Below are positions 30,801 through 59,400 of a stretch of 64,000 nt of DNA, one piece after another. The position numbers and the translations under genes were made by a program. The stretch lies in the NCBI GenBank assembly GCA_051362555.1, contig CM120644.1, positions 3,418,954 through 3,482,953 on the forward strand, read 5' to 3'. The first letter of the stretch is position 1. Each line of letters begins with the position of its first letter. The notes under the pieces are model-generated. The model was not told the DNA's origin, made no database searches, and saw only the letters and a list, made by a program, of their open reading frames with translations. This stretch comes from Lingula anatina (lineage: Eukaryota; Animalia; Brachiopoda).

Positions 30801-31095
30801 TTTTCAACCACCAGGTCGGAAAAAGTGGAGAGAAAATGTCAGAGGTCAGCTGAATTGGTGTCATTAATGCTAATAACACTTATATTACAAGTGATAACTT
30901 CACCATTAAGTGACCTCTACAGAGATTTCTGGACTCTGAGCAAAGGAGGTTCACAAAGAGGACACCTGGGATATTTTTGCAATTCTGTAATTTTTTGGAA
31001 AGCAAAGACGTAATTATCAAATCCAGTCATTAGTAAAATAAATATACTGAATGCTTGATCTCAAATGAGATAAGTGTAGAGTTATTTCAGAGAAA

Positions 31096-34000
31096 ATGGA
31101 AAGAGGTCATCAAGGTTCATTTGGAATTGCTTGTAACGCTGTCATTGTTGCTGGTCTTAACAAGCATGTCAAGAATATCACATCTGGCTCAGAAGAGAAT
31201 AAAATGTATCAAAGCAAAAACAATACCCCAAATACTGTAACGAGCTCCAGCTCAAAGGAAGGAGAAAAAGAAAATTTTGATAGCAAAAATAATCAGCAAG
31301 ATACTAAAGTTCGTCACTTAAAGGGAGTGAAAAAGCTCATGTTTGACAGCAAAAATAGTTTACCAAGCACTGAAGTTGTTTCTGGTGCCAAGTTGACATC
31401 GAAGGGCAGAATTAATCAGCAAACCACTGCAATCACATCTTGCTCTAAGGTGAAAGAAACAGAGACCTATGACAACAAAAATAATCAGCCAGGTTCTTGT
31501 ATAAACACTGAGAAACCTGAGCAGAGATCAGAACAGCAGACAGGAGGGAGTGACAAGCACAAACATTCTGTACATAGCCACAAGTTCATACCTCACTCTA
31601 CACAAACATACCAGGGAATAGATATACACAAACAAGGCACTGGGCTCCTGAGTAAGGACCCTGAGATGGATCGGGTTTTTGCTGTTCCAACAGGAATAGT
31701 GCTGCAGCGCATGAAGCAGCTACAGGAGGGTCATGTGGGTAGCAACAGGATTGGAAGTCGGGCTGAAAAGATTTTTGTTTTGCTCAGTCCTGGTGGTGGC
31801 TTAAGCAAGCAGAGGAGCTCCTCAGGATCAAAAAAAGGGCTGTCACATAAATATCAACTGCAAGAGAAGGCAGTTCACTTCGACGGGGATAATTCTGCTT
31901 CTTTTGGAGACTGGAAATACCACAGAAATACAAGAGATGTTAAAAAGGACGAGATTCCCCAGAAAGACGTCAGTGGAAATTTAAAAAGCAGAGTTGGTGA
32001 TATTACACGTAAAAATACCTTTGATGATCCAATTTACACAAGCCGTGACACACCTCTGACACCTTTCAAAATAAAGGTAGACTCTGGAGAAATATGCGCA
32101 AAGAAAGATCTATCTCTGCTACCACAGAAATCAAGTGTTTCAGAAGATGAGGATCCCAGCACTGGGCAAGAACCTTGTAGAGAAAACACTTCAGTGCAAT
32201 ATTTTTCAGGAACCCAGAAGTCATTACACTCACCGCCTGCCTGTAGTGTTATTATAAGGGGTGATGCAGTTGATAAAGATACCAACAGAAAAAAGCACCA
32301 AACACAGGGGAAGTCAGATGAGAGACTTGTAACTGCTCTCAGTAATATCACTGTTTGTAGCACCAAGGCACCTGAGCAAAATCACAGACATGGGTCTGGT
32401 GATGAGAAAGAAAAATATGCCCAAAATGATGATGGTTTTATAATTAGCCAAACCAAAGGTACCTCAAAATGGGGAGGCAAGACTGAGAAATATCTGGCCA
32501 GAGAAGTTGGAAAATTCAGTGCAAAAATCGAGGATTCTGAATCGGCCAAAAAACTGAATATAATTGGAACAAAGACAAAGGAAACCCAAGAGGACAATAA
32601 GACAGCCAATACAGGACCAGATGTGAAGTCAGCCAGTGACAGTAAGACTAAGCAGGCATATGGCAATTCTGTCAAAGCAAAAGCCTCACTATTTGAGCAA
32701 GCATCAAAGACTGATGTTACTGATTCTGTTGTGTCCCAACTAAAGAAAAAATTGGCTAAGAAAACTCATTGGAGCCCAAACCATTCTTCTCCTTCGTCTT
32801 CACCACAAAACAAAGGTGATTTTAGTTTTAAGAAACAACCAGAAAAATTAAAACTCCATTCCCCAGTTTCAGTTGTAAATTATATCGTGACAGCCCCACC
32901 ACCACCACCACCACCAGTGACAGAATCTGTGCCACACAACAGCATTCCCCAGGCCAGCATAAACACAGATCAGTCCGAGCAGTCAGACAGTGGGTCGTCA
33001 ACAGCCACTGGTGACACTGTCATGGGGAACACCGTCAGCTCAGATGACAGCTCCATTTCGAATGGGAAACAGCACCACCAGCACCACCCTGGAGACCCAG
33101 GGGCCAGTGCAAGGAGAGATAATTTTGCCGCCATATCCAATTCATGGTCTAGTGGCTCGAGATCCCACAGGAATTTTGAGGGTTATTATAACTGCAGACA
33201 GGCCCAAGATAAGTGGCGTCAACATTCTGATGGATTTCAAGGTCCAGGTTATTCCAACGGTTTACCCAAAAATCGGCGTTTGCACTCACCTCCTTTGCAT
33301 GACCGTTATGACCATTATTGGGGCAATGAAAGAAAACATTTAGCATGGCAGGATCACCCTTATCAAAAATTTAAGCATTCCTCTGATTATCAGGGAAAAG
33401 AGCAGGCAATATGGAAAGATGTTGAAATGGCACGAGCAAAGAACATTTCACCAGTAGACTCTGAGGATACATGGCGATATAAACATGATGGTAAGTTAAC
33501 CCAGTACCCCTCGCCACCAGCTCATGTAAGGTACAGTGATAGCAAACAGAGGGCAGATGACTTCCTATACTCTGATGTCCCGTATAATCATCATGAGGGC
33601 TATGATGCACAAGTTGGCTCCAGTCAAGAAATATGTAGTCCCTGTCAGAAATTGGACAGATACCCAGAATATTTTGAATGTGATTATCCTCGAAGAGAAG
33701 ATTCATTTTGGTCACAAAGAGAGAACCGGGACAGTGCTGTAAGAGATCAGAGAGTTGTCTATCCAGGCGACCAAGGTCTGAATTACACTGGGCATAAGGG
33801 GGTGAGATACCAGGATGATTATAGATATGACCACTTGGAAGAGAAGTACCTATTCCCAGGGTCAGTAAGTGCAGAATTCAACCCACCAAGAATGTCTGAT
33901 GGCCATATTGACTTTCGCAGCGAGCTTAATTTGACATCAGCCTATCCTGAGACAAGGGTCATCTGGGGGAATGATAACACTGATCAGAGGCATGGAAGTT

Positions 34001-36429
34001 GTGGTGCTGTGTATTCCATGCAAGATGCTGATCTGCACTCTCCTGCCAGGTTTCCTGGAACGAATGATGGCAATTATGCTAGCATAGATGCTTATTCCAG
34101 GGAGGAGGAGTCCAGTTATACCAGAGTTGAAGATGGTTTATATGAAGACAAAAGAGCACACTCTGTTGATGATTGGGGTTCTGAGAACCGTTATGCTCGG
34201 AAAGATGAAGGGGCTGATGCGATTTATGCCACTGTGAACAAATGGAAGAAACCGGACAGAGAAATTATACACGATGAAATGGGGGATGGAATTGGGACTC
34301 GAGAACTGCCATATTTGGAAGCTCAGAGCCAGGAGAGAGAAGTAGATGAAGATGGGACTAATTCCCCAAGAAGGCTATCATACCACAGTGATTTACATTT
34401 ATCACTGTCCATATCAGACAGTCAACCTAATTCTACTGGTCAAATTGACCATCAGAGTAAAAAAGGACGTCTTTTTCTTCTCACTCTATCAAATCCAACC
34501 TCGCCTACATCTGATATAGAGAAAACAGCAGGCAAGCCGGGAGATACCAATACTGGATTGACAGTTGAGGCTGTGGGTAGTGAGACATGGAAAATGGAGA
34601 CAGGAGCCAGAGGGGAATCCCTTGACAGAGAATTGAAAAGTGCTGTGAAGGCGCAGTGTGACAACAGAAGATCAGGAATGTATGTGAAAGACACATCATT
34701 AATTCTGGTCAGTGGAGACAACCCAGAAAATTTATCTGTATGCAATGATACCAGGCAAAGGCAAAATGCTGATAATTACCAGCTCTCCAAAGAGACAGGT
34801 TATCCTCCCAAGGGCACTGTTGTGAATGTGACTGCTGGTGACACCTATTGTTCAGATGGCAAACCACATGATGACCTTAACAGTTTAGATGAAAGACCGC
34901 ATGGCAACCGTAATTGTCTGGGTGAGGAGACAGGTGGTGACCCCTATAGTAGTTCACATGATTTGTATGCCCCTCCCATTTACCACACTGAAATGAACAT
35001 GCAAACTGGAGCTGCCACTGAGTGTTTTAATGGTGATTATTATGACAAATACCAGCCAATCTCTGGTGGTTCTAATGATAAAGAGGAGAACATTAATTTC
35101 AAGCCAACATCACCTTCTGTGGCAGTGATGACGGAAAAGAGCACCAAGACACAAGCTGTCGCCCCACATTACGTTCCCAGCAGTCACGAATACAAGGATG
35201 GATTTCATAACAAACTCACATCACCTAGTTATGGTAATGAGGATGCAGTGATCAGTGTCACACGTGTTGTTGGTGTAACAGATGGAAAACCAAATCAAAA
35301 GACATTGCCATGCTCTGCGTCCACGCCAGGAGTCATTTCACCTAATCGGGTGCTTAATGTTGGTGGGTGCTCTGGCTTAGAGTTAAATGGTAAGACATCA
35401 GAGACCTTAGAACCCTGTGAAGATAACAAGGGGAAAGGAATAACTGCAGAAGAGGAGGAAGTTGGTCAGTCTGATTCAGTTGAAGAAGACAACACTGTTG
35501 AAATTTATATTAACTTTCCACCTGCTGTACGGAACACTGCCAGGAAGGATCCAAACGAGAAAAAAAATTCTTCAAAGTTTGAGTCATTGCCAGCCTCAAA
35601 GATAAAAGATTCTTATAAAACAAAAACGGCCTTAAATGCTCAATTTCCACTTGATGTGTCAAGCATGAGTAGATGGAATGCTACATCTGGGGAAAGTGGG
35701 GAGAAACTAGGTAGGACTGTTATTTCCATTGAAGGTGACTCAGACAAGATAATGGAGTATGGGGATCCTATGAGAGACGATGGTTGTGAAGTCAAAGATG
35801 CAAATGCTGATTGTCGTTATGTTAGCTATTGTATGGTGAGAACTGAAATGGAAGGTGATGAAGCGGATGAACATTCACAGATGGGTATAGATTCCCCACA
35901 GAGTTGGGTCAATCAAGAAGATGGACAGTGCGAAACCACAATGCTGCAGAAAGATGACGAAGACATTGAGGAGAATCAGATAATTCATGGTCGGTCTGAA
36001 ACGAGGTCAAAAGAAACTGAAGTATATAGCAAACATGAATACCAAAAAGGTGAAGAATCCCTGTTCTCCCCACCGCCAAAACCACCAAGATCTAAACCAC
36101 CAGATAATATATCCAAGGATACAGAATCAGAATTGGCACATTACAATGGTAGTAATTTGAGTGACACGCTGCTATCAGAGCATAAAGAATTTGTGGAGGT
36201 TCTTTCTGGTTGTTCTAGCCCCCGTTTCAAAAACAAAAAGCCAAAACTACGTCAGGACCCAGGAGGCGAGTCTGAGACATACCTTTCGTATTTATCCCCA
36301 ATATTTGATTGGAAGAAATTGTTAAGGGTTCGACTCGAAGATGAGTTTTGTCATGGGGACGTTCGTTCTTTGGCCTCCAGTGGGCGGAGCACGCCATGTG
36401 AATATGCAGATAGCGATGTGGAGTGGCAG
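31096..36429 (+). CDS. Giant (1778-codon) low-complexity alternative exon of LRRFIP
   Basis: Uninterrupted 5.3 kb ORF inside LRRFIP intron 2; ends ...DVEWQ|gtagga in phase 0, compatible with the next LRRFIP exon (38039); no transposon domains visible. Confidence 0.78.
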
Positions 36430-38038
36430 GTAGGATTTGTATCAATTTATACATTTTTATATGTTTATGAGTAGGCTTCTAAAATGCAGGTTATTAGTAG
36501 GTGAGCTGGGTAAATAGTTACAGTAATCTTCTGAAGAGAGAAAAGCTTTTACATATCATTTCCTTTCTTTTGTGTTTTTTCATTTTGTATATAAGTAGAC
36601 TTTAGAATCGCAGGTATGGAAGGTGAGCTCAAAAATTAGTTTCCCTTTCAAAGGGAAAAAAGCTTTCTATTGACATATATAAAGTGTTTTGATTGACAGG
36701 CAGTTTGAAGTGCAGCCTGACACCTGCCTTAGTAACCTTTAGACATCATGAAACTACTTAAATTTTTTAATGGTCAGTACATGTCCCTTCACTAGAAAAA
36801 ATGGATATGATCAGGAAAAATTGATAATTGGTAGAAATAAGAATAACCCCCCCCCCCCCCCCAAAAAAAAGGATATGCTGCAAAAAAGTTTTTTTTCTCA
36901 TAAAGAAAGAAAAAAGAGGAGAAATGAAGGAATGAGGAAGAGAGGGTACACATAAGCCACCTTTTAATTAATAAGCAATACACATAAATCATTGAAAGAA
37001 AACAAAACAAGGAGAAATTCTATCCAGTAATGTTATTGCAAATAATTATTTTGGTTGAAGATCTGAGTTCCATGCTACATAAATTGCATGTTGAGGGTGA
37101 ATCATGATGACAACATCTGGCACCAGATATGAGAGTCCTGTGTGAACAACTGTGTCAGATCTGACTAAGAAGGGTGTGTGTTAGAATCTTGTTCCTTTTT
37201 TCTGAAGATTTTGTGAGATCCATTTGTAAACAGCTAGTTGTAATAATTTTTGAAATGGTGGTGTGATTGCAATGACATTAAATGTGTGCCCATTTAACTT
37301 GAAGCCCTCACGGTTATGAATGCACGTATGCGTGTGAGATTTTTATGCGACTATGTTTTTAAACTGCTAAGGTTGTCAAATGTATATATAAGACTGTTCG
37401 TTCAGACAAGGTTTCTTAAGACTGTATATTATTGTATCCTTATTTATGTAATAACTGGAATTAAGGTTTAGTTAATTATTTATTTTTTGGGGGGTGGGGG
37501 GTCGAGAGACTTACTTAATGTTGGCAGAAAGATTTAAGTAACTAATTACTCAGAGTGGTGACATGATTCATGAATTTCTATTTTTTAACTTTGAAAGTAG
37601 TGAATTCAGTATAATAATACAGTAGTGCTCTACTCTGGCACTGGGGTATCCAGTAACTTAAGCTTTTGTTTAGAAATGTAAGAACAGCTTTTGTTTAGAA
37701 ATGTAAGGATAATTGGGTTCTAAAGGAAGAAGGGCAGAATTAGTGCTAAATTGGCTTTAGGTACAGCTTTGCTTTAACAAGTATTGTTTTTGTCCTAAGA
37801 ATTTTTCTTTTCAAGCAGAATTGTTTATTTCAGAACAGGATTCCTTTGGTTCACTTCAGCGTTTAATTTTAAAAGCAGGAAATTAATGAAAATGTATATG
37901 TAATTTGCCTCACTTGGTATTAGCATGTTTGTTTTCTGTTAGTATTTTTGTAATTGAAAATTCTGTCTGACAGTGTTATGTTGCTGCCAAAGAAAATCCA
38001 GTATTTGTGATTAACCCTATGTTTGTGTTTCTTTCCAG

Positions 38039-40670: not shown

Positions 40671-41013
40671 GTAAGTCTGAAATATTGGAAATGCTTTGCA
40701 GTATCATAAGAGCCTTGCTAAGATGTCATAGTTTACTGTCTCTTTGGGATACAAGGATATCGGATTCTTTTGCCTCAAAGCAGACATAAAATAACTGTCA
40801 TTAAAACTTCATTAGAAATTATTATGAGATTTCTAAGACATCTTTCTTCATTCAGCAGAATTAATAATGAAATTTTTAAGAATTTTTTTTTCTACTTACA
40901 AACTGAAAAATCTATTCCTGGGCCAATTAATCACACCCATTATCATTCCCTGAGATAACTATATGAATTTCTGCATGTATTCACCAATATATTTATGTTT
41001 TCCCCCCTATCAG

Positions 41014-41208
41014 GAGCATGGTTTAGTGCTGGTCGCCCCAGAGGCAGGAGAACCTGAGCTGAGCGCGGCAGATCTCGACAGTAAAAAAGGGTTCTCAGCG
41101 CTGCTGGTCAGCCCTGCCACAGCACAGATCCTGGAGAAACTGGGTGAAGGCTCAATAGACGATAAAATTAGGAGGTTAGCCTCAGAAAAAGAAGAGTTAT
41201 TAGACCAA
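41014..41208 (+). CDS. LRRFIP2: LRRFIP exon
   Basis: cag|EHGLVLV...LVSPATAQILEKLGEGSIDDKIRRLASEKEELLDQ|gtaagt. Confidence 0.92.
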
Positions 41209-42189
41209 GTAAGTTTTAATCTTTTTTTTTTTTTCTGTGTTTACTGTGTCTACTCACTGGCCATTTGTAAGATAGTAGGGTTACAGAAATACAGCACATT
41301 TCAAGTTTTTTTGAAAGTCGTATTGGGGTTTAGATAATTTAGCTGAGTTTTTTCATTTCCAAATTATTATAAAAGAAACATACCTATTAATATGAAATAA
41401 ATGTTTTGATAGTGATTTAAAAGCATGAATATAATATCAACAAATAGCTTAAGTATAGTAACATAGAAGCTTTACTAATTCAGTATATTTAGGACTAATC
41501 AAATATAGCCTTCTTGATTGTTGTTTTAAGTGTGCTGCAGTGGCGCCCCATACTCATTAACTTTAATAAATAGCAGAAAGAAATGGACAGATAATGCTTG
41601 TAATAGGAATGCTATTAATACATTTAATCTGTGGAAGTGGGGAGAAGTTGCCTTTAGCCTGGTAGATTAAATCACATTAGGCAGACCTACTTCAAATTAG
41701 ACTGCAACAAAATGACTAATGTTAGATATACTTTTTGATAACATTGCACATTAATTATTTGATCGATTAACGTGTACAGTCATTTATTTATTTATTTATA
41801 TTTTTATTTGGGAAGGGTGGGTAGATTTTCTGCATAGAACCTCTGCCTGTCTACTCAGTGTATTACAAGCTTGAAAAAGTCCTGCATTGTTAAAACTGAA
41901 TGAACTTCAGAGAAAAAAAAAATACTCACTAGGTTTTCTAAACAGTAATAAAAGGTTGCAGATTTTCATGTGTAACACAATTACTGATATAATTATGATG
42001 ATATTACCATTTGAGCTCCATCTCATGATTTCTTAAAATTTGTATTTACATTTTCTGTAAGAGCTTTGAAGTGTATTCTCCATGTAGAGTACTAGTAGTA
42101 CGAGTTCCAAGTCAGGCATGAATAGCGAGCATGAAGTTCATTGTAATTGTTATTCTTTATTCATTAATTTACTTTTCCCTGCAAATTAG

Positions 42190-48924: not shown

Positions 48925-49032
48925 CTTCGAGAAACGCAAAATGTTGTGGAAGAACTTCAGAACCAGAACAGTCATCTCAGCAAGAGACTAGAAAAAATAA
49001 AAACTGCAAGAAATGCATTAGTAAAGCCATGA
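48925..49032 (+). CDS. LRRFIP2: LRRFIP alternative terminal exon B (distal, canonical-like)
   Basis: ttgcag|LRETQNVVEELQNQNSHLSKRLEKIKTARNALVKP*; NSHLxKRLEK is the canonical LRRFIP C-terminus. Confidence 0.88.
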   Translation, partial: LRETQNVVEELQNQNSHLSKRLEKIKTARNALVKP

Positions 49033-51840
49033 GGAAACTAAGGAAGGAAGAAAATGTATGACGAGAGTGTTTTTCTTTTTATATCTAAATGTGATCTAAT
49101 TCCATGAGGAGGCAGACATTCTAATGTGGTCTTTATCATCAGATCTTCCAACAGCCTAGTGCAGCTGACCAGAAGACACTACCATTTAAGGCTTTGCCAA
49201 AAGCATTTGACAGAGTTGTGCTCTTCACATTGCCCTATTACAGAGGTTTCAGGATGTACGTGACCTAATTTCCCTCCCAGTTCTAGAGCGTAAGGAATTG
49301 TATGACACCCTTGTGACCCGTTTCCCCTCCCAGTTCTAGAGCCAAAGGAATTAAACAATATATGCTTCCTATTTCCTCTCCTAGCTCCAGAGTGATAATA
49401 ATTTTCCCATTTTTTTCTGGGTCTACGTTTGCTGGATGTTCTTTTCTACTGCAATATAAGTTCCTAGAGTAACAAGAATAAATTTTGTAGACTTAACAGA
49501 AGTTAATCACACTGTTGGACTTGGATTTTCCAAATAAACAATAATTTGACAGCAGTTGCTAAATGAAGTCCTGTTCTTCAAGGAGGACTTAGAAATTCTA
49601 CGCACTTTTCAAAAGGGCTGGTTACCACGGTAACTGTGCCCCCTGTTCTGGAGGAACTACAAGCTGGACAGGCAGCAAATGTGTCACACTTGAAGAGAAA
49701 AGGATACTCTACAGACCTTGCCGGAAAAATAATTTATTGTTCCAAATAATGCAATCAGCAGATAAATGCCAGTGATATCCTAATGAAGCATCAGTAGAGA
49801 CAACAGCTTCTAGTTTGTTTCATTGCCCTAACGGGCTCATATCTGCTAGATAATGTTATTGCTGGGGTAATTCCAGCAGCTTTAATTGGTCAACAGATCA
49901 GGATGTTACTTAATTCAGGGGCAACTAGAAGGATGGGGGAGACATGTGTTGTAGGATTCCTGTTAATTCCCATCAGTTCAACAGCCCCTGTGGAAAACTG
50001 CTAAAATCCTGGTTGTGCACTGAGATTTGAAATCATGCTACAATGCAATTTAATTGTATTTGGATAAAACCATTCGGACGATGTTGTATCATACCAGTTT
50101 CACAATTTTGATCAGGACATTTTGTTACCATTTACTGCATAATGATTTGCTATTTCCTTGGAGAACATGTAAGCAGTCACAACTTGCTAGCTGACAAAGT
50201 ATAGTTAAGTGGTTAGGTGATAGTCTTCTGATGCTCAGTAATCTTTTGGTATGAGCAGTTTCATCATCAATGTGTCTACTATAACTAATTGCTGGGTCAC
50301 ACATTGATGCTAGCCTTATCATGTTTCGCAGCCTGGCTATGTAAAATTTCAGTTTGGCCACCCTTTTTGATGTATCTCATTTTACAGGCCCTCCATTTTA
50401 TTTATTTATCTGTATATTTATTTATTTTAATTTTGTTCGGAAAAGCTAATGTTATGTCCTATGTTATTATAATTGGAGGTTTTTCCACATTTGGTGGACA
50501 TTTTTTAATGCCAAAAAATATGAACAACAGAAAATGCTGATACCAAATATGTTTTTCTTCAAAAACTAACTAAGGCAATTTTATATCAAGGAATCTTTGT
50601 TTGGTGGGCACTGTACTACTCAGATATTGCATCCAGAAAATGAAAATTCACATAAAACACCCATGCAAAAGGGTGGCCTGCAGGCTGAGGCTATAAACCA
50701 TATTAACACGACTGAGAATTTTAGTTAATTGGCCAATTTCAGCTCATCTGCCTTTGGTCTCTACTCATGCCTAAAGAAAAAAAAATGGGTGTAAAAATTG
50801 GGACTCCCTCTCCTGCTGGTAGCACACGTTATGTATCTGCCTGAGCTCTTCGTTGCTTCACGTGGTAACTCTGGGATGACCTCCTTAATGTTATTGTGAC
50901 TTAAGAAAATATACACCGAAATCAAGGGGCATTTGGGTCAACAAATATATGGACTAAGAAAAAAGCTTTTTGATATAGAACGGCTTTCAAGTGTCACATA
51001 AAAATATATGAATAAATTTTTTCTCTATAGTTGGTTTTTTTGTAATTATTAATCCCACAGGTTAATCTCAGGTCTTTTTTTATTGAGGTGTTGCAAAAGG
51101 TGTTATTGATACTTGTTTGTTTCTGTATAACAAGTAAATATTTTTCTTTGTAATTGTTGTTATCATCGATAAATTACCCAAACGCGGGTCATAACCCCTA
51201 TTCATTTGAATACCACAAGGTGGAAATTTCTGTATTTTCAAATACAAACTTTCTTTCAACTGATTTTCTTTACTGCAAATCTGAACTGAAAGTCTCTGCA
51301 TTTGAATATTGTAAAATGAACATAATTTTTTTAAAGAAAAAGAAACTTATTAATTGACTTTTAAGAACTGCATTTAATTGGAATTATCGACCATCATCCT
51401 TTACATACCAGCGTAGCGCAGAACGCGCAGTTCCTACAAGGGGGTTGCTCCTCCCCCCCCTTTCCCCCCCTCGCTGTGATTTGCCCAATACTTCCTTCCC
51501 AGTAGACGGTCCTTTCACGACCGATATAACTGCTAAGTAAAAATTTAATCATTTGTATGTTTTTATCAGGTATTCAGCTGTTTCTCTCCGTATTAAACCC
51601 GGTAATTCTTACCTATCTACTTAATATATTAAATAAGAAAAGCTTATTATAAGCTGTTTTTGGAGAAATGTCGTTTAGTCCCATGATGAGATGCCTTTTT
51701 TGATTAAAAAAAATATCCAATTTCAATGATTTATTAAATGTTAGCTGCAATACATGAATGCCATAACACGGACAATAGCTGTATCATATCAAATCATATC
51801 AAAAAAGTTATCAAACACCGTAATCATTCGGCCTTTTCCG

Positions 51841-51890
51841 TATATATACGTCAGTCAACGACCGTTGACGGGGAATCCCCTTTTAAAAAT
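51841..51890 (+). promoter_or_regulatory. Candidate IRG promoter with palindromic NF-kB site
   Basis: GGGGAATCCCC at 51870-51880, CRE half-site tacgtca at 51847, TATA-like tttaaaa at 51882, ~80 nt upstream of ATG 51959. Confidence 0.6.
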
Positions 51891-51958
51891 AGTTGCTGTA
51901 ATTTTCCTTTATTATCGGTACTTTGGATTAACAGAATTCCTACTCGGAGGTCAAGATA

Positions 51959-52006
51959 ATGACTTTTTGCTACATTATTATCTTGCTGTTGACACATCTT
52001 TCACAG
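51959..52006 (+). CDS. IRG exon 1: signal-peptide-like sequence
   Basis: gataATG (A at -3) MTFCYIIILLLTHLSQ|gtaggt; phase 0, joins exon 54510 in frame. Confidence 0.68.
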
Positions 52007-52548
52007 GTAGGTCTGCAATCTGAAGGCAGTAGGCCTAGTGTTATGTGCCACTGAGAGGATGCCGCTACTGTAGGCCTATATGTGTAGTAGGCCGGGTGCG
52101 TGACAACAGTCCGAAAGTTCAATAGTCCAAAGGTTCACTATTTGTTATTGGTTTAGAGTCCTGGTCCCTCTCGTTCGCCGCCACTACACCGTTACCACTC
52201 CTCTCCCTAGGCTATAGGGGCCTGTGTCTTGGATTTTGGTCACTTATCATTCAGCTTGGTCCGCTTAGATTTTGGGGTCTGTTGGTGCATTGATTTAGGT
52301 GTGGCGTTTGTCGCAAAGCACCTTTGTTCAACGTTTGCTAAATATCTCCCAAACCGAAGGAATTATTAAATTACTTCAGAGGGCTGCCCGAAACTCATAT
52401 GTGGAGATTCCAAATATGCCCTAAATTGGTTTTTACTTTGGGCCAAAGTTTTGTAAAAACGGCTGGGAATATTCTGTGAAAAAAATGTTTGCGCCAGTTT
52501 TCAGAAACTACATGTACCTAAGCTTTCATATTATAGTGTGGAGATACT

Positions 52549-53525
52549 CACGCTCGGCTGTCACCTTGATTGGATAGTAAACGGTTGTCGTAAAATCGCT
52601 AAAAGATATTAAAACCCGGTGCATAAACTTGAAAACCACCTAGGACAACCTTAGACTGCCACATTAATCCAATACAATGCAAAAATAAACTATAACAAGT
52701 GGTTAAAGCCTTCAAACCGAATGTCGTAAAGTCCCCATATACCTCCATAGAGACAATAAAATATAGTAAGCTTCTGAAACAAGATAAATCCAGTTCCAAC
52801 ATAATAATCGAAATAAAATACTGCCGGGCATCGGAGCGGCCTCAAACTTGGCACGCTTACCGCTAATACTGCAGGCTACATCATCCCGTCGCTCGTTTGT
52901 AAATTCCGTGCATGGCATACGCACAATCAAACCGTATATCCAAATTCCATCTCTGATGTTTGAATTAGTCCTCTCTACAATCCAATTCAGGAAATGACGT
53001 AACCGCAGAGGTCGCATTGTCCAATGGCATGGCTTATTTTTCGTAAGCCCGGTGTACGGTGACCTCTGCGGTTACGTCACTTCTTGATTTGAATAGCGTA
53101 GAGGACTAATTCAAACATCAGAGGTGCAATTTGGATATACGGTTTGATTGTGGGTATGCCATGCACGGAATTTACAAACGAGCGACGGGATGATGTAGCC
53201 TGCAGTATTAGCGGTAAGCGTGCCAAGTTTTAGGCCGCTCCGATGCCCGGCAGTATTTTATTTCGATTATTATGTTGGAACTGGATTTATCTTGTTTCAG
53301 AAGCTTACTATATTTTATTGTCTCTATGGAGGTATATGGGGACTTTACGACATTCGGTTTGAAGGCTTTAACCACTTGTTATAGTTTATTTTTGCATTGT
53401 ATTGGATTAATGTGGCAGTCTAAGGTTGTCCTAGGTGGTTTTCAAGTTTATGCACCGGGTTTTAATATCTTTTAGCGATTTTACGACAACCGTTTACTAT
53501 CCAATCAAGGTGACAGCCGAGCGTG
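52549..53525. mobile_element. Foldback-type non-autonomous DNA transposon (465-bp inverted arms) in IRG intron 1
   Basis: Arms 52549-53013 and 53061-53525 are near-perfect reverse complements; TSD gagatact at 52541-52548 and 53526-53533; termini CACG...CGTG. Confidence 0.92.
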
Positions 53526-54344
53526 GAGATACTCTTAGGGATTTTTTTCATCTTCGTGGATTTTTTTCTTACACGGTTTTGGGGTTGCACTACATCAGTA
53601 TGTAGTGGTGAAAATGTTCAGTGGTGAAAATAAACTGTGAAATACACCAAAACTGGCAAAGATACCAGTATGCCCAAAGTTACTATTGGCATCTTTCTGT
53701 GGCCTTGAATCTGACCTTTGGCCTACATTTAACCATGAACTAATAATTTTCAACCCTCATATCTACAAAACTGGCAGAGATACGCTCATGAATAGTTACT
53801 ATCGAACTTGATTAGGAAGTCATATATGGGCAAACATGATATGACCTTTAATTAGACCTTTGGCCTAGTTTTTGCCTGGAACTGAATATCGCTAATTTCT
53901 CAACCCTTAATTATATCTCAAAAGCTGGCAGAGATGCACCAATAGTTGCTAATGGATGTTATAGGGGCCTATATTGACATTCATAATGTGACCTTTAGTT
54001 TGACCTTTGACCTTCTTTTCCCCACGATTTTTGTAATAAATTGTGATTTTCTACAAAAATATTGTATATAATGATCTTTAGAAAACTACACAGTCCCAAG
54101 CTTTCAGATTATGGTGATGAGTTAAAGAACCCTTCTTCCCCATAACTGACGCACATATCCCCACAACTTCCTTCAAACTTAAATGCGCTTCTTTTGCGGT
54201 ATCGTATCTCAGAACCTCTAGTTTTGCAGTGGGTTTTCATTGTTTTCCTAGCGTTCTGTATTCATGTATATTAATTATCGGCTGCCAACATTTGAAAATC
54301 TCTCTCTCTCCCTCGGTGGGTCCTCTTACTTTTACACACACACT

Positions 54345-54346
54345 CT

Positions 54347-54415
<69 letters not shown>
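54345..54415. repeat. (CT)n(CA)n compound microsatellite
   Basis: Direct reading. Confidence 0.95.
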
Positions 54416-54417
<2 letters not shown>

Positions 54418-54509
54418 CTGTGTGCTAAGAAAAATACTTGGGCAAGCAGGTTGATTGTACTTTTGGTCCAGTATAGCGTAAAAGTATTTCTCTTGGTGTG
54501 AAATTTCAG

Positions 54510-54555
54510 GCTGAACGAGGTCATGCCCAAAGTCATCATGAGAAAAAACCTGAAG
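54510..54555 (+). CDS. IRG exon 2
   Basis: tttcag|AERGHAQSHHEKKPE(G)|gtaggc, phase 0/1. Confidence 0.7.
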
Positions 54556-54829
54556 GTAGGCTTTTAAAAAATATTTTTATTTTATGTACTGATAATTACC
54601 CTTGTTAATTAATTTAGGTGGAGCTCTTGAAAAAGTCCACCTATGCTGAACAAAGTCAACAAAGGGTTCAATTAGCTAACTAAATGGCTTTTAGCAAAAA
54701 TTAAGGAAGAGTTTCCAAACAAAAGTCGTGTCTTTAGTTTACATCGTAAAAATACGTTATTTATGTTCACTGCAACTAGAAAGAAAGCTCTACTTTACGC
54801 AAAAGTAGCTAGCTTCAGCATTTTTCCAG

Positions 54830-55036
54830 GGTTTAACTATTATGAAGAAATGATGGACATAATCACGAACAAAGATTTCACAGAAGCAACATTTAAATGG
54901 ATGCGGGACAGTATGGACCATTGGAAGAAAACGGACCTTCATGTCGCCATGATAGGTGAATCGGGAGCCGGAAAGTCGGCATTTATAAATGCAGCCCTCG
55001 ATCTGGACGAAACTGATCCACGGGCGGCAAAAGTTG
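54830..55036 (+). CDS. IRG exon 3 (P-loop GESGAGKS)
   Basis: ttccag|(G)FNYYEEMMDII...HVAMIGESGAGKSAFINAAL...AAKV(G)|gtaggt, phase 1/1. Confidence 0.88.
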
Positions 55037-55465
55037 GTAGGTAAAAGATCTGAAATTCTCGTGGATATGGCAAACGTCGATATAAAAATTATCCCCCTTT
55101 TTTTTTATTTACTATATTCAATTAATACAAGGGGCAACCAAATATTGACGCTTCCCATGCGCTTCTATAACCCGTTTTCTTATTAGCTAAACGCAAATTT
55201 TTCATTTTTTTAGTTCATTTTAACAGTAGTTCTTTTTATTCTACAATGTATATTCTACATCATTTACAGCATATTATCATCTATGTAACAGCAGGTATTA
55301 CCTTCATGAGATTAAAACGTTTACAATTATGCACTGCTAAACTGGTTAAAATCAAGGGATTTTAGTTCAGAACATCTACTTTTATTTGAGGGCATGTTAT
55401 TTTTATATGCTGGTACATATAACTGTTTGATTTTATCATTCTTTTTTTTTTCTTTTGCGTAACAG

Positions 55466-56408
55466 GTGTTGTTGAAACGACTAGAGAACCTGCACCTTAC
55501 AAACTCCCAGATAAGCCCCTGACTTTGTGGGACCTTCCTGGCGTTGGCACAGCATCTTTTCCAAAGGAAACGTATCTACGACAAATCAAATTTCGTAGAT
55601 ATGAATTCTTTATCATCGTTTCAAGCACACGCTTTTCGGAAAACGACCTGTGGCTGGCAAAGGCCATTCAACAAGAGAACAAGAAGTTTTACTTCGTCAG
55701 GTCAAAGATTGACATCGATATTTACAACAGCAGACGACAGCGTGTCCCTTTAGAGGAGGTTCTGCGCCAAGTATACGACAACTGTCACGAGACGCTCAGC
55801 CGAGGAGGGTTTGCGAACGTTCCTGTTTTTCTTATATCAAATTACGACCCAAGCGATTGGGATTTTCAGAAACTTATGCGCCAACTCATCGATGACGTCC
55901 CAGAAAAGAAACGAGAAGCTCTGGTCCTCTGTATAGCAGCTACTGGCGAAGAAGCAATCCGCGCCAAAAGAAAAGCGTTGGAGAATCGTATCTGGGTAGC
56001 CTCAGGCTTGGCTTCTGCTGGCGTACTTGTTCCGGTACCAGGAACAAGCATTGCTGCAAATTTTGCTGTACTGTTGTACGAAGTTAGCTTCTACGAGGAG
56101 CAATTTGGACTGAACCAACATTTAAAGGCAGATCTTTTTTTAAAGGGGGGTGCCTCAGAGGGGCCACGCTCTCGAGTTTAGCGACCAAGAAAGGAATAAC
56201 AGAGTTGATCAAAAAGATTGTCATCAATAAGGGCCCTCAAACTCTCTTGGCAGAGGCTGCGCGTTGGATCCCCCTCGCTGGCACCGCCGTATCTGCAGGA
56301 ATTACTTTCTCAACCACATACCACGCCCTGCACTGTATACTGGACACATTTGAGCAAGAGGCGCTGAATAACCTGATGACGAAAACTGTCTTACATGATG
56401 AATTATAG
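55466..56408 (+). CDS. IRG exon 4: immunity-related (interferon-inducible p47-type) GTPase G domain and helical C-terminus ending HDEL, with a -1 frame break at ~56120-56150
   Basis: GVVETT (G2), LWDLPG (G3), YFVRSKID (G4), VFLISN, VPVPG; frame 0 stops at 56181; the -1 frame continues with the IRG-like EAARWIPLAGTAVSAGITFSTTYHAL...HDEL*. Confidence 0.88.
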
Positions 56409-59400
56409 GAAACTGTTCAAGAGAAATTATTTTCCTGAGTAGATTATCCTGAAATTCACGTCATTTAGACATTCTTCTCTGCAAAATTAAGACGAATTTT
56501 AAGACCGTATTTTTTCTCTACGAATTAGAATATCATTATAATTTTCATTATCACTTGAAGCGTAAAAACATCAAATGAGCAGGTTGTAGCCACGATAAGT
56601 AAAGCTTGAGAATGTTAAAATAATAAGAATAACGTTAACATATCCTATAGTACTGATTTTAAAATGATAAGAATATCATATCCTATAGTGTTTCACGGAC
56701 ACGCCTATAGGATTCAATTCATGTAACATGTCTCGGGTCTATTTTTTTAAATTGTGTATAAATGCTTCGCATAGTTGAGGGGGGAAATCTCAGCTCCGAG
56801 GTTTAATTGCTAGACCCCTACAGGGCTGCGCGCGTGGTAGGCGGGAGACCATTTGGTAGGTCTATAGCTTTTAAGGGGGATAGGCCATATTTGTTAATCC
56901 GCGGATCATCTGTTCTCAATGCGACCACCGACAGCGTATTATCTACTGCAAAAAATGTCATTATAAAGTTTTTACAAAAAATAAGACACGTGCTTCTAAT
57001 GCCTTCATTGACACTGGTTTCTGACTGCATAGCTTAAGCCTTTGGTACGGGTATTATGGTGGGATGCGCATTTGTATCCCACTCAGTCCGAGCAAGAAAA
57101 GTCGAACTACAATCCCATGGTCCGAGGAACTATTAATGTGTTCTTGCTGCTCCCCAAAAGATGATGTTTTTTCATTGATTTTTCCTACAGTTCCGACTTA
57201 TAAATGACAACAAGGATTTTAATCTTGCTTTAATAACTCTTACTAATAATATCTGCAGTGTATTTGTAATATCAGGACTTTAACCGTATTCACCTAATTA
57301 GGGAAAAAAAACTACACGGCTGGTGCCATTTTCATGTCATTTCAATTTCAACATTTTCCAAATTATCATCTGTGAAAGAGTTATACGCTCCACTACGGAC
57401 GCTTATATCAGTGCATAGTCTCAGAAATGGTCCGTGGTGCATCTGGCATCATCCGGCTATCAGGGCTCTAAAGTGGCAAGGCATTCTTTTGACAGGTATA
57501 TTGGAGATTGAACTGGAATGATATTCCAAGTATCAACCGATCGGAGCTTACCCAGTTTGGTTTAGATTTGTTGTGGGACCAATGCGCCGTTGATTCTTGC
57601 TACTTTGAGGCAACAAGATTTGCATATACAAGAGAATTAGACTGTGTGAAATTTTAAAATAAACTAGATAAATATTTTTTTTTATTTTCATTTGATTTGG
57701 TGTGTAATTGTCTATAGTTAAAGATGACTTAAACCTTTTTGTACTGCCTATAGGACCCTTTTAGCAAGCCCTCTTCTCTGCTGCATTTTAGTTTCCCTTA
57801 TTCGGCCGCTTGGCGGTAGCACTTTCAGTGAAGCTCTTGTGACTGGAAGCTACCGTGCACTAAGCCAAGTGCACTAAGTCACATGACCCTGTGATCAGAG
57901 GTTGCAGTAATGTGAACACTGTTCAATCACGTGAGTTAGAGTATATATATTGTTGCAATCTCAAGGGAAGGGTAGTAGTCAAATAAAAGGCGCACCTCAA
58001 TCTGGTATCGCAGATAGCATAAAATGTAAGTAATGTAGCAGAGGAGGATTGAGGCCATCTTCTGGGTCTTTTGGAAGACGGTCAGATTTCAATTTACATT
58101 GATGGGTATCTTATTTTTTCTGTCGGAAGACAGTCAAAAATGGAGGATGGATCAGCAAAGATAATTGGGAAGACTTTTAAAATATATCTGGATCCGTCAC
58201 TGCTGTAGTAATGTATCTAATAGTTCATGTTTTCTAATATTTCAGTACTTTATTGTTTATCGTATATTTATGTCATTATTTATTTATTTTTTAGAATTGT
58301 ACAAAGCAAGACAAAAAAAGAAAGAAAGAAAGTAGTAACGTATCAACAGTAGCAACAGTATCAACCAAATATTGGAACAAATTGTGCTGTCGACGGACCC
58401 ATACCGCTTACTCGTCAATAAAGGGCATTTTTATGCATAACGTAGTCTACTATACTGGTAAGGTATCCTTATTTTTGTTATTGTTATAGTCTTGATTGCA
58501 AGTGTTTGAATCTGAAGTACGGTGTTTGCTGAACCAGGGGGAATATTATGACGTTGTAAACGTTATAGTGGAACTGAATGGTTTAAATGGCGGTTTTTAA
58601 CCTACAGGCTTCAAATCTGGCAATTTTGCGGCCGTAGTAGCTACTCAAACCATTGATGCAAGTAATCTGTAAATACAGTTGATCTGTGTGGACGGATAGT
58701 TTCATCTTGTAATGTGAAATTGCTCCTCTGTTGCCCTCAGGCAAATGCGAGGCCGACAATTTCCAGAATATTCCTGTACTTGATGTGGTTCAGGTTTCTT
58801 TCGATGTTTTCCAATGAGGTTTAGGCACCAATGTGAGTAATAAATAAACACGCCGTCAAACGTAGTGTGATCAATCGCAATAACTAACATATACGTCAAA
58901 CATATTGTGACACGGCCGCAAGTAAGGAGAAATAGGTGAATGAAACCCAAGCCATATCATAATATTTTTTTATTATTCCACAGCAACTTGATCTGCCAAT
59001 ATTTAACCGAATACCGCCCTAAAGGCGGTCACCACCTTTGTTTATAATTTTATTTTTTATAATATTATAAAAAAGTACGAGTTAAAATATGCTAAAAGAA
59101 AGAAAAATTAAATTCCGTCGTGCCGCCACAATCTTCAGTTTGGATTGTTTCATAACGTTTAAAATAATTTAATCCCTATTGTGTGAATAGAAAAGGGTGA
59201 ACAAACAATGGACAACCATATCAATGCTGTCAAATTTTGAACGGAATCACACAATAGCTTAGACGGGTGAACCACATGACGCAGGCATGTGTGGTACAGC
59301 AAGATCAAGCGATTCACTGTAATTAGGTATAATTAACAGCAGAACACATCAGCTGAAAGATCATAATGTTTGTTGCGGACTAAGATCTAATAAACGGGAA

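Follow-up and report, generated by a model that had tools for sequence, protein, structure and literature searches.

We report that a 64,000-nucleotide stretch of the genome of the brachiopod Lingula anatina (contig CM120644.1 of assembly GCA_051362555.1, forward-strand positions 3,418,954 to 3,482,953; hereafter the window, numbered from its first letter) carries at 51959-56408 a copy of a gene for an immunity-related GTPase (IRG), the intact version of which begins with a predicted signal peptide and ends in HDEL. A working signal peptide together with HDEL leads to retention in the endoplasmic reticulum (ER), however the two arose. The Lingula IRG is, as predicted from its sequence, probably located in the ER lumen. 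Characterised IRGs attach to membranes on the cytosolic side, through myristoylation or an amphipathic helix; the available text of a 2005 survey reports no further attachment motif (PMC1297648). In the literature searched (few subscription journals, no supplements), no report of a signal-peptide- or KDEL-bearing IRG was found.

The first-pass annotation of the window had proposed a four-exon gene with GT-AG introns. This model was confirmed: the exons at 51959-52006, 54510-54555, 54830-55036 and 55466-56408 have canonical AG/GT ends, their phases match on joining, and the RefSeq protein XP_013388685.1 (P0001 below) maps to the same four exons. The parts of the gene are as follows.

51846..51958, + strand: likely 5' untranslated portion of exon 1; it lacks an ATG and has a TAA in frame at 51929
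51959..52006, + strand: coding exon 1, which holds the start codon and encodes the hydrophobic core of the predicted signal peptide; contig X8#17 joins it to exon 2
54510..54555, + strand: exon 2, encoding the Ala predicted at -1 of the cleavage site and a polar linker that is disordered in the model
54830..55036, + strand: exon 3, with the first IRG-core helices, the G1 P-loop GESGAGKS (54955-54978) and an internal ATG at 54850; IIGP E 2e-6
55466..56408, + strand: exon 4, Pfam IIGP, E 2.8e-60
56134..56142, + strand: likely one-base deletion in a T run, which moves the window copy to TAG 56179 and a product of 338 amino acids without HDEL
56394..56408, + strand: HDEL and stop codon, present in the -1 frame and also in P0001

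In an ATG/stop scan, the in-frame TAA at 51929 precedes the ATG at 51959, which is the first ATG of the likely untranslated region (UTR). The UTR limit of about 51846 presumes that the 158 loose letters of contig X8#17, of which the last 30 are visible, are contiguous; alternatively, the AG at 51933-51934 could be the acceptor of another exon farther upstream.

P0001, a protein of 415 amino acids, is the best database match of the window gene and is named interferon-inducible GTPase 1 in RefSeq, an automatic name only. Its relation to the window copy may be that of an allele or of a nearly identical paralogue. The two have the same exons and the same signals at about 95% identity (95% before a frameshift in the window copy, 89% after it), whereas the frame is open in P0001 and broken in the window. 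The proposal that targeting signals lie at both ends of the protein is upheld by this intact copy, in which the open frame, the hydrophobic N-terminus and HDEL are all present. In the exon 1 part, 15 of 18 residues are identical between the two; translation of the window gene starts one codon further 3' than that of P0001 (51956-51961; I-M versus M-L), and both starts sit just before the hydrophobic core. At the other end, HDEL stands directly before the stop codon in P0001 and in the -1 frame of the window (56394-56405, followed by TAG at 56406-56408), although the two residues directly before it differ; it is absent from the 338-residue frame-0 product, which stops at TAG 56179.

The termini of P0001 were compared with those of 335 IRG relatives (330-900 amino acids, counting isoforms and near-copies). 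The pattern [KRHQSA][DENQ]EL is found at the end of P0001 alone, and from the tail composition of the IRG set the chance of a [KHR]DEL end is about 1e-4. An EL ending as such is found in 7 of the 335: P0066, P0143, P0157 (KTEL), P0240 and P0269 have it without a hydrophobic N-terminus, and P0296 has a hydrophobic N-terminus but ends in VYEL, which was not counted as a retention signal. The N-terminus of P0001 ranks 5th of 310 by 8-residue hydrophobicity and combines a hydrophobic core with a small-residue -3/-1 site (S-Q-A). By our own post hoc estimate, which takes about 5% of relatives as this hydrophobic and multiplies this by the HDEL chance of 1e-4, both signals would occur together by chance at about 5e-6 per protein, or about 0.01 over 2745 representatives. 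The HDEL found in 1 of 335 relatives and the rank of 5th of 310 support the earlier inference of two independent signals that point to the ER lumen. In addition, HDEL sits a few residues past the aligned end of the relatives' last helix. N-glycosylation sequons are absent from the protein, which is uninformative since 27 of 208 relatives likewise have none.

The same N-terminus could instead be an uncleaved signal anchor that takes the place of myristoylation, so that the GTPase faces the cytosol while fixed to the ER; this we regard as quite improbable. The family does use such anchors, as the anchor-like N-termini of the clam IRGs P0177, P0190, P0225 and P0338 suggest, and the uncharged n-region of P0001 would suit an anchor. 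However, the best 19-residue mean hydrophobicity is 1.46 in P0001 versus 2.45-2.58 in three anchor-like clam IRGs, which suggests a stretch too short to anchor the protein and agrees with a cleavable signal. The small-residue -3/-1 site is also present, and HDEL would have no role in the cytosol.

The identity of the protein as an IRG, likewise proposed from the letters of the window, is agreed on by the IIGP profile, the fold model and the alignment to mouse Irga6. The profile scored 204.8 bits against a curated cut-off of 24. An AlphaFold2 model of P0001, built on an 85-sequence alignment, has a predicted local distance difference test (pLDDT) score of 86.7 and places a G domain between N- and C-terminal helical domains, with the IRG core starting at residue 36; in the window copy, the frameshift removes the last helices. 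In front of the core, the model has a low-confidence N-terminal helix, which is separated from it by a disordered linker (residues 19-32, pLDDT below 50). When this model was searched with Foldseek, the top 37 ranks listed were all IRG structures (E 3e-21, TM 0.58-0.65). In the ESM Atlas, the whole protein matched IIGP clusters only, and residues 1-45 had no usable match.

The Lingula protein is, by its sequence motifs, a GKS-type IRG and likely active as a GTPase. It keeps G1 GxxxxGKS, G3 DLPG and G4 KxD (G4 Asp186), together with the catalytic switch-I Glu106, Arg159 and Asp164. Of 11 catalytic-interface residues of Irga6, as listed in the available text of PMC3042988, 7 are identical in the Lingula protein (E77, G103, E106, T108, R159, D164 and N191) and 2 are conservative (S132 and K196). 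The three-domain fold is common to the Lingula protein and to Irga6/IIGP1 and other GKS IRGs (PF05049; PDB 1tq4, 5fph, 7vex, 7c3k), as are, with Irga6, the G1 GKS, G3, the G4 Asp, the switch-I Glu and most of the catalytic interface. The two differ in their ends and in gene structure. Irga6 is N-myristoylated and lies on the cytosolic face of the ER, whereas the Lingula protein has a spliced signal peptide in that position and HDEL at the C-terminus; the Lingula coding region has three introns, whereas mammalian IRG open reading frames are intronless (PMC1297648, for the part of that source available). An MG start (MGxxxS myristoylation) is found in neither the window nor P0001, and many other IRG members also lack one; cytosolic-face targeting is a trait of the members characterised so far and not a definition of the family.

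Splicing was assessed with read contigs from 4 of 21 listed runs, compared over 54430-56700. Runs X8 and X9 are labelled 'DNA?' and have no library record; they were read as RNA because spliced contigs are present there and were not seen in X1 and X2, both of high depth. In contig X8#17, exon 2 is preceded by a loose 5' end whose letters agree with the 3' part of exon 1 (51974-52003) at 30 of 30 visible positions. Contig X9#21 holds exons 2, 3 and 4 in one record, with both introns skipped. All three exon junctions are therefore backed by spliced contigs, including that of the signal-peptide exon 1 to exon 2, and the proposed use of exons 1 and 2 was found in transcripts rather than their absence. 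A further contig, X8#19, lies within intron 3 and may be unspliced RNA or DNA. For 4 further RNA runs, raw reads covering 6-26% of each run were inspected. In this sampled part, depth was low over exons 3 and 4 and zero over exon 2; among the 15 of 68 read joints that were visible, no exon junction was found, and the reads were dominated by intron-1 repeats.

Several observations weigh against a lumenal IRG. The predicted signal peptide has no positive charge in its n-region and its core is short. The last helix of the model runs to residue 414 and could hinder the access of the receptor to HDEL. Conservation of the pair of signal peptide and xDEL is seen only among near-identical Lingula copies, and the Irga6 interface residues T102 and K161 are not conserved. 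Read depth on the exons is low, ranging from 0 to roughly 11 per bin where the 4 RNA runs were sampled. Finally, contig X9#22 spans intron 2 into exon 3 (54605-54856), which may be unspliced RNA or DNA, or a transcript with a downstream start and no signal peptide.

An ordinary cytosolic IRG would follow if the N-terminal signal were weak or bypassed, or if a start in intron 2 or at ATG 54850 were dominant, with HDEL a coincidence. We consider this unlikely. It would agree with the cytosolic attachment of all characterised IRGs as given in the available text of PMC1297648, and the intron 2/exon 3 contig, the uncharged n-region and the richness of IRG tails in E and L, of which the seven EL endings are an expression, speak in its favour. 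Against these stand the splicing seen from exon 1 to 2 to 3 and the position of ATG 51959 as the first in the likely UTR. The modelled core begins at residue 36, before the internal ATG at residue 40, so a start there would clip the first core helix. The shift of the start by one codon between the window and P0001 still leaves it before the hydrophobic core in both, and the chance that both signals arose together is about 5e-6.

The break in the window copy was examined in the reads. An extra T behind 56134 was present at depths of 102.8 of 102.8 in X2, 6.5 of 6.5 in X9 and 52.2 of 127.5 in X1, and in 3 of 7 RNA reads of X18; the intact versions also have a C inside the T run. The remaining depth of about 75 in X1 shows the window's letters across 56128-56156, so that the one-T deletion is likely a real feature of the window copy and a pure assembly error is the less likely cause of the frameshift. 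X1 may, however, itself be the source of the window sequence. The first-pass annotation had placed a -1 break near 56140 and given the full length on condition that it is bridged; the break exists, but it is more than a gap to be bridged, being likely a real one-T deletion that other copies lack.

Summed depth on exon 4 rises to about 340 versus 63 upstream, at least 3 sequence types are present and their 3' flanks differ, which suggests that there are a few near-identical copies or alleles. When the window was compared with contig 13 of X2, 11 synonymous and 12 non-synonymous differences were counted, giving a ratio of non-synonymous to synonymous change (pN/pS) of 0.33 (p=0.011; 23 of 25 differences classed, one not visible and one at the break left out). 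Purifying selection has acted on the gene, and the window copy is likely a recent loss, a frameshifted and probably dead version of an intact, spliced Lingula gene. Conceivably, the window copy could be rescued by -1 ribosomal slippage on U UUU UUA (56136-56142), giving a full-length, HDEL-ended protein. The heptamer is in the right phase, and the window copy may be the source of the 4 X18 reads (of 7) that lack the extra T. Nevertheless, the other copies are open and a C interrupts their T run, so that the heptamer is explained as an incidental result of ordinary deletion by slippage; the fold 3' of it is modest as well (-15.8 kcal/mol over 74 nt, a value without shuffle control). Such a rescue appears very improbable.

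A lumenal IRG would be expected, from established cell biology, to enter the ER by co-translational import dependent on the signal recognition particle, to be cleaved after the S-Q-A motif and, as a soluble protein, to be kept in the lumen by KDEL-receptor retrieval through HDEL. By analogy with Irga6, it may then oligomerise in a GTP-dependent manner through the conserved catalytic interface and bind membranes by its C-terminal helices, here on their lumenal face, and act as an immune effector. An SLC35B1-type exchange could supply the GTP; human SLC35B1 is described, in the available text of PMC9010763, as moving GTP in liposomes at a rate lower than that of ATP but significant. The target is the least supported step: it might be the lumenal leaflet, or microbes or vacuoles reached by ER content, or else the protein might be released when KDEL retrieval is saturated during infection. 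We slightly favour an ER-lumenal location and an immune-effector role taken together.

The protein could also be lumenal and yet serve a non-immune, housekeeping purpose, such as membrane shaping or a calcium-store or quality-control scaffold, much as sarcalumenin arose from EHD-like GTPases. All of the targeting evidence is common to this explanation and to an immune effector. Sarcalumenin is lumenal and has a signal peptide. It is a dynamin-family GTPase of the calcium-store system of the ER and sarcoplasmic reticulum (SR), according to the available parts of PMC7016017 and PMC9026860, and is a precedent for the Lingula IRG in that a large protein with a dynamin-like G domain was brought into the ER/SR store; it is EHD-derived, acts in muscle calcium handling and is not an IRG. 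IRGs that are not induced also exist, IRGC1 being one (PMC9232189, available text). Moreover, an NF-kB-like site near the start of exon 1 is not significant, and this also counts against an immune role. Low expression, near-identical copies or alleles, a broken copy and the lack of orthologues among the matches listed nonetheless fit immune birth-and-death better, and a housekeeping function seems to us an improbable explanation.

51870..51880, unstranded: NF-kB-like site GGGGAATCCCC

Matches to this consensus number 7 at 3 places in the 64 kb, and 9 of 100 shuffles reach 7, so the site is not above chance.

The first-pass annotation had further suggested a lumenal class of IRGs. On the present data this gains no support, since the signal peptide and xDEL occur together in 1 of 335 relatives, namely P0001 itself. 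Among the matches listed (the best 120-150 per search), no orthologue beyond P0001 was found, the best matches being about 58% identical over short stretches only, and no other brachiopod protein was recognised, from which absence in other species does not follow. The shorter relatives comprise 26 fragments, none above 58% identity, and a metagenome scan found no relative.

A second set of IRGs with signal-peptide-type N-termini was found in venerid clams by a search seeded with a Ruditapes IRG that has a signal-like start. In this clade, 6 of 7 clusters (P0205/P0268, P0286, P0287, P0394, P0293 and P0296) have a member with such an N-terminus and none has xDEL; the seventh, P0288, starts later. 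Named members are Ruditapes XP_060571856.1 and Mercenaria XP_045156516.2, XP_053373551.1 and XP_053374129.1. The hydrophobic character of the clam N-termini is kept down to 47% identity, while their sequence is not. Like the Lingula protein, the clam IRGs have the IRG core after a short hydrophobic N-terminus; unlike it, they have no xDEL and are predicted to be secreted, and they are about 33% identical to it and form a separate clade. In a quick tree, the Shimodaira-Hasegawa-like approximate likelihood ratio support of the clam clade is 88, or 99 with its sister P0024, which has no signal. Forcing the Lingula protein into the clam clade was rejected by the approximately unbiased test (p=0.002; p=0.03 with P0024 included; 31 hand-picked rows, LG+G4, first 30 residues omitted). 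IRGs therewith likely entered the secretory pathway at least 2 times in lophotrochozoans, as judged from these sequences, and the independent clam signal peptides raise the prior that the Lingula signal is real.

Other N-terminal extensions were observed in the family. P0177, P0225, P0190 and P0338 (from Mya, Mercenaria and Ruditapes) have a long transmembrane-like N-terminal anchor followed by an acidic or repetitive spacer and are, by sequence, likely membrane-anchored IRGs. The distant IIGP-like proteins P0351-P0356, P0360 and P0364, several of them from chlorarachniophyte algae, have signal- or bipartite-targeting-like hydrophobic N-termini.

Intron 1 holds the following repeat element.

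52549..53525, unstranded: inverted-repeat element of 977 bp resembling a miniature inverted-repeat transposable element, in intron 1; arms of 465 nt, 97% complementary

Many related copies of this element are present among the RNA reads. Diverged repeats of about 145 nt lie 3' of it at 53640-54025, still within intron 1; related sequences are abundant, at depths of 150-570, in each of the four RNA runs and, in X12 and X15, come mostly from one strand. Upstream of the IRG gene, a gene of the LRRFIP family (Pfam PF09738) was recognised on the + strand at 40954-41337 and 48926-49033; its likely last coding exon ends with TGA 49031-49033, about 2.9 kb 5' of the IRG start. An open frame of 1801 codons at 31069-36474 on the + strand is of low complexity and has no Pfam match; it probably represents a single giant exon, which may belong to the LRRFIP gene.

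It is conceivable, as a tentative broader picture, that membrane-attack GTPases of the IRG family were transferred across the ER membrane more than once in lophotrochozoans, with an HDEL-retained lumenal form in Lingula, acting in the secretory pathway or released on infection, and an independent secreted form in venerid clams. The clam clade offers a natural comparison without the retention tag. As understood so far, IRGs act in the cytosol and load onto the outside of pathogen vacuoles, and a lumenal or secreted IRG would reverse this topology and add a new effector type to invertebrate immunity. A lumenal IRG with an intact GTPase switch would need an ER pool of GTP, for which the available text of PMC9010763 reports only low-rate transport by SLC35B1, and would serve as a probe for that pool. 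If this is true, the non-cytosolic face of membranes and the extracellular space would also be sites of IRG immunity.

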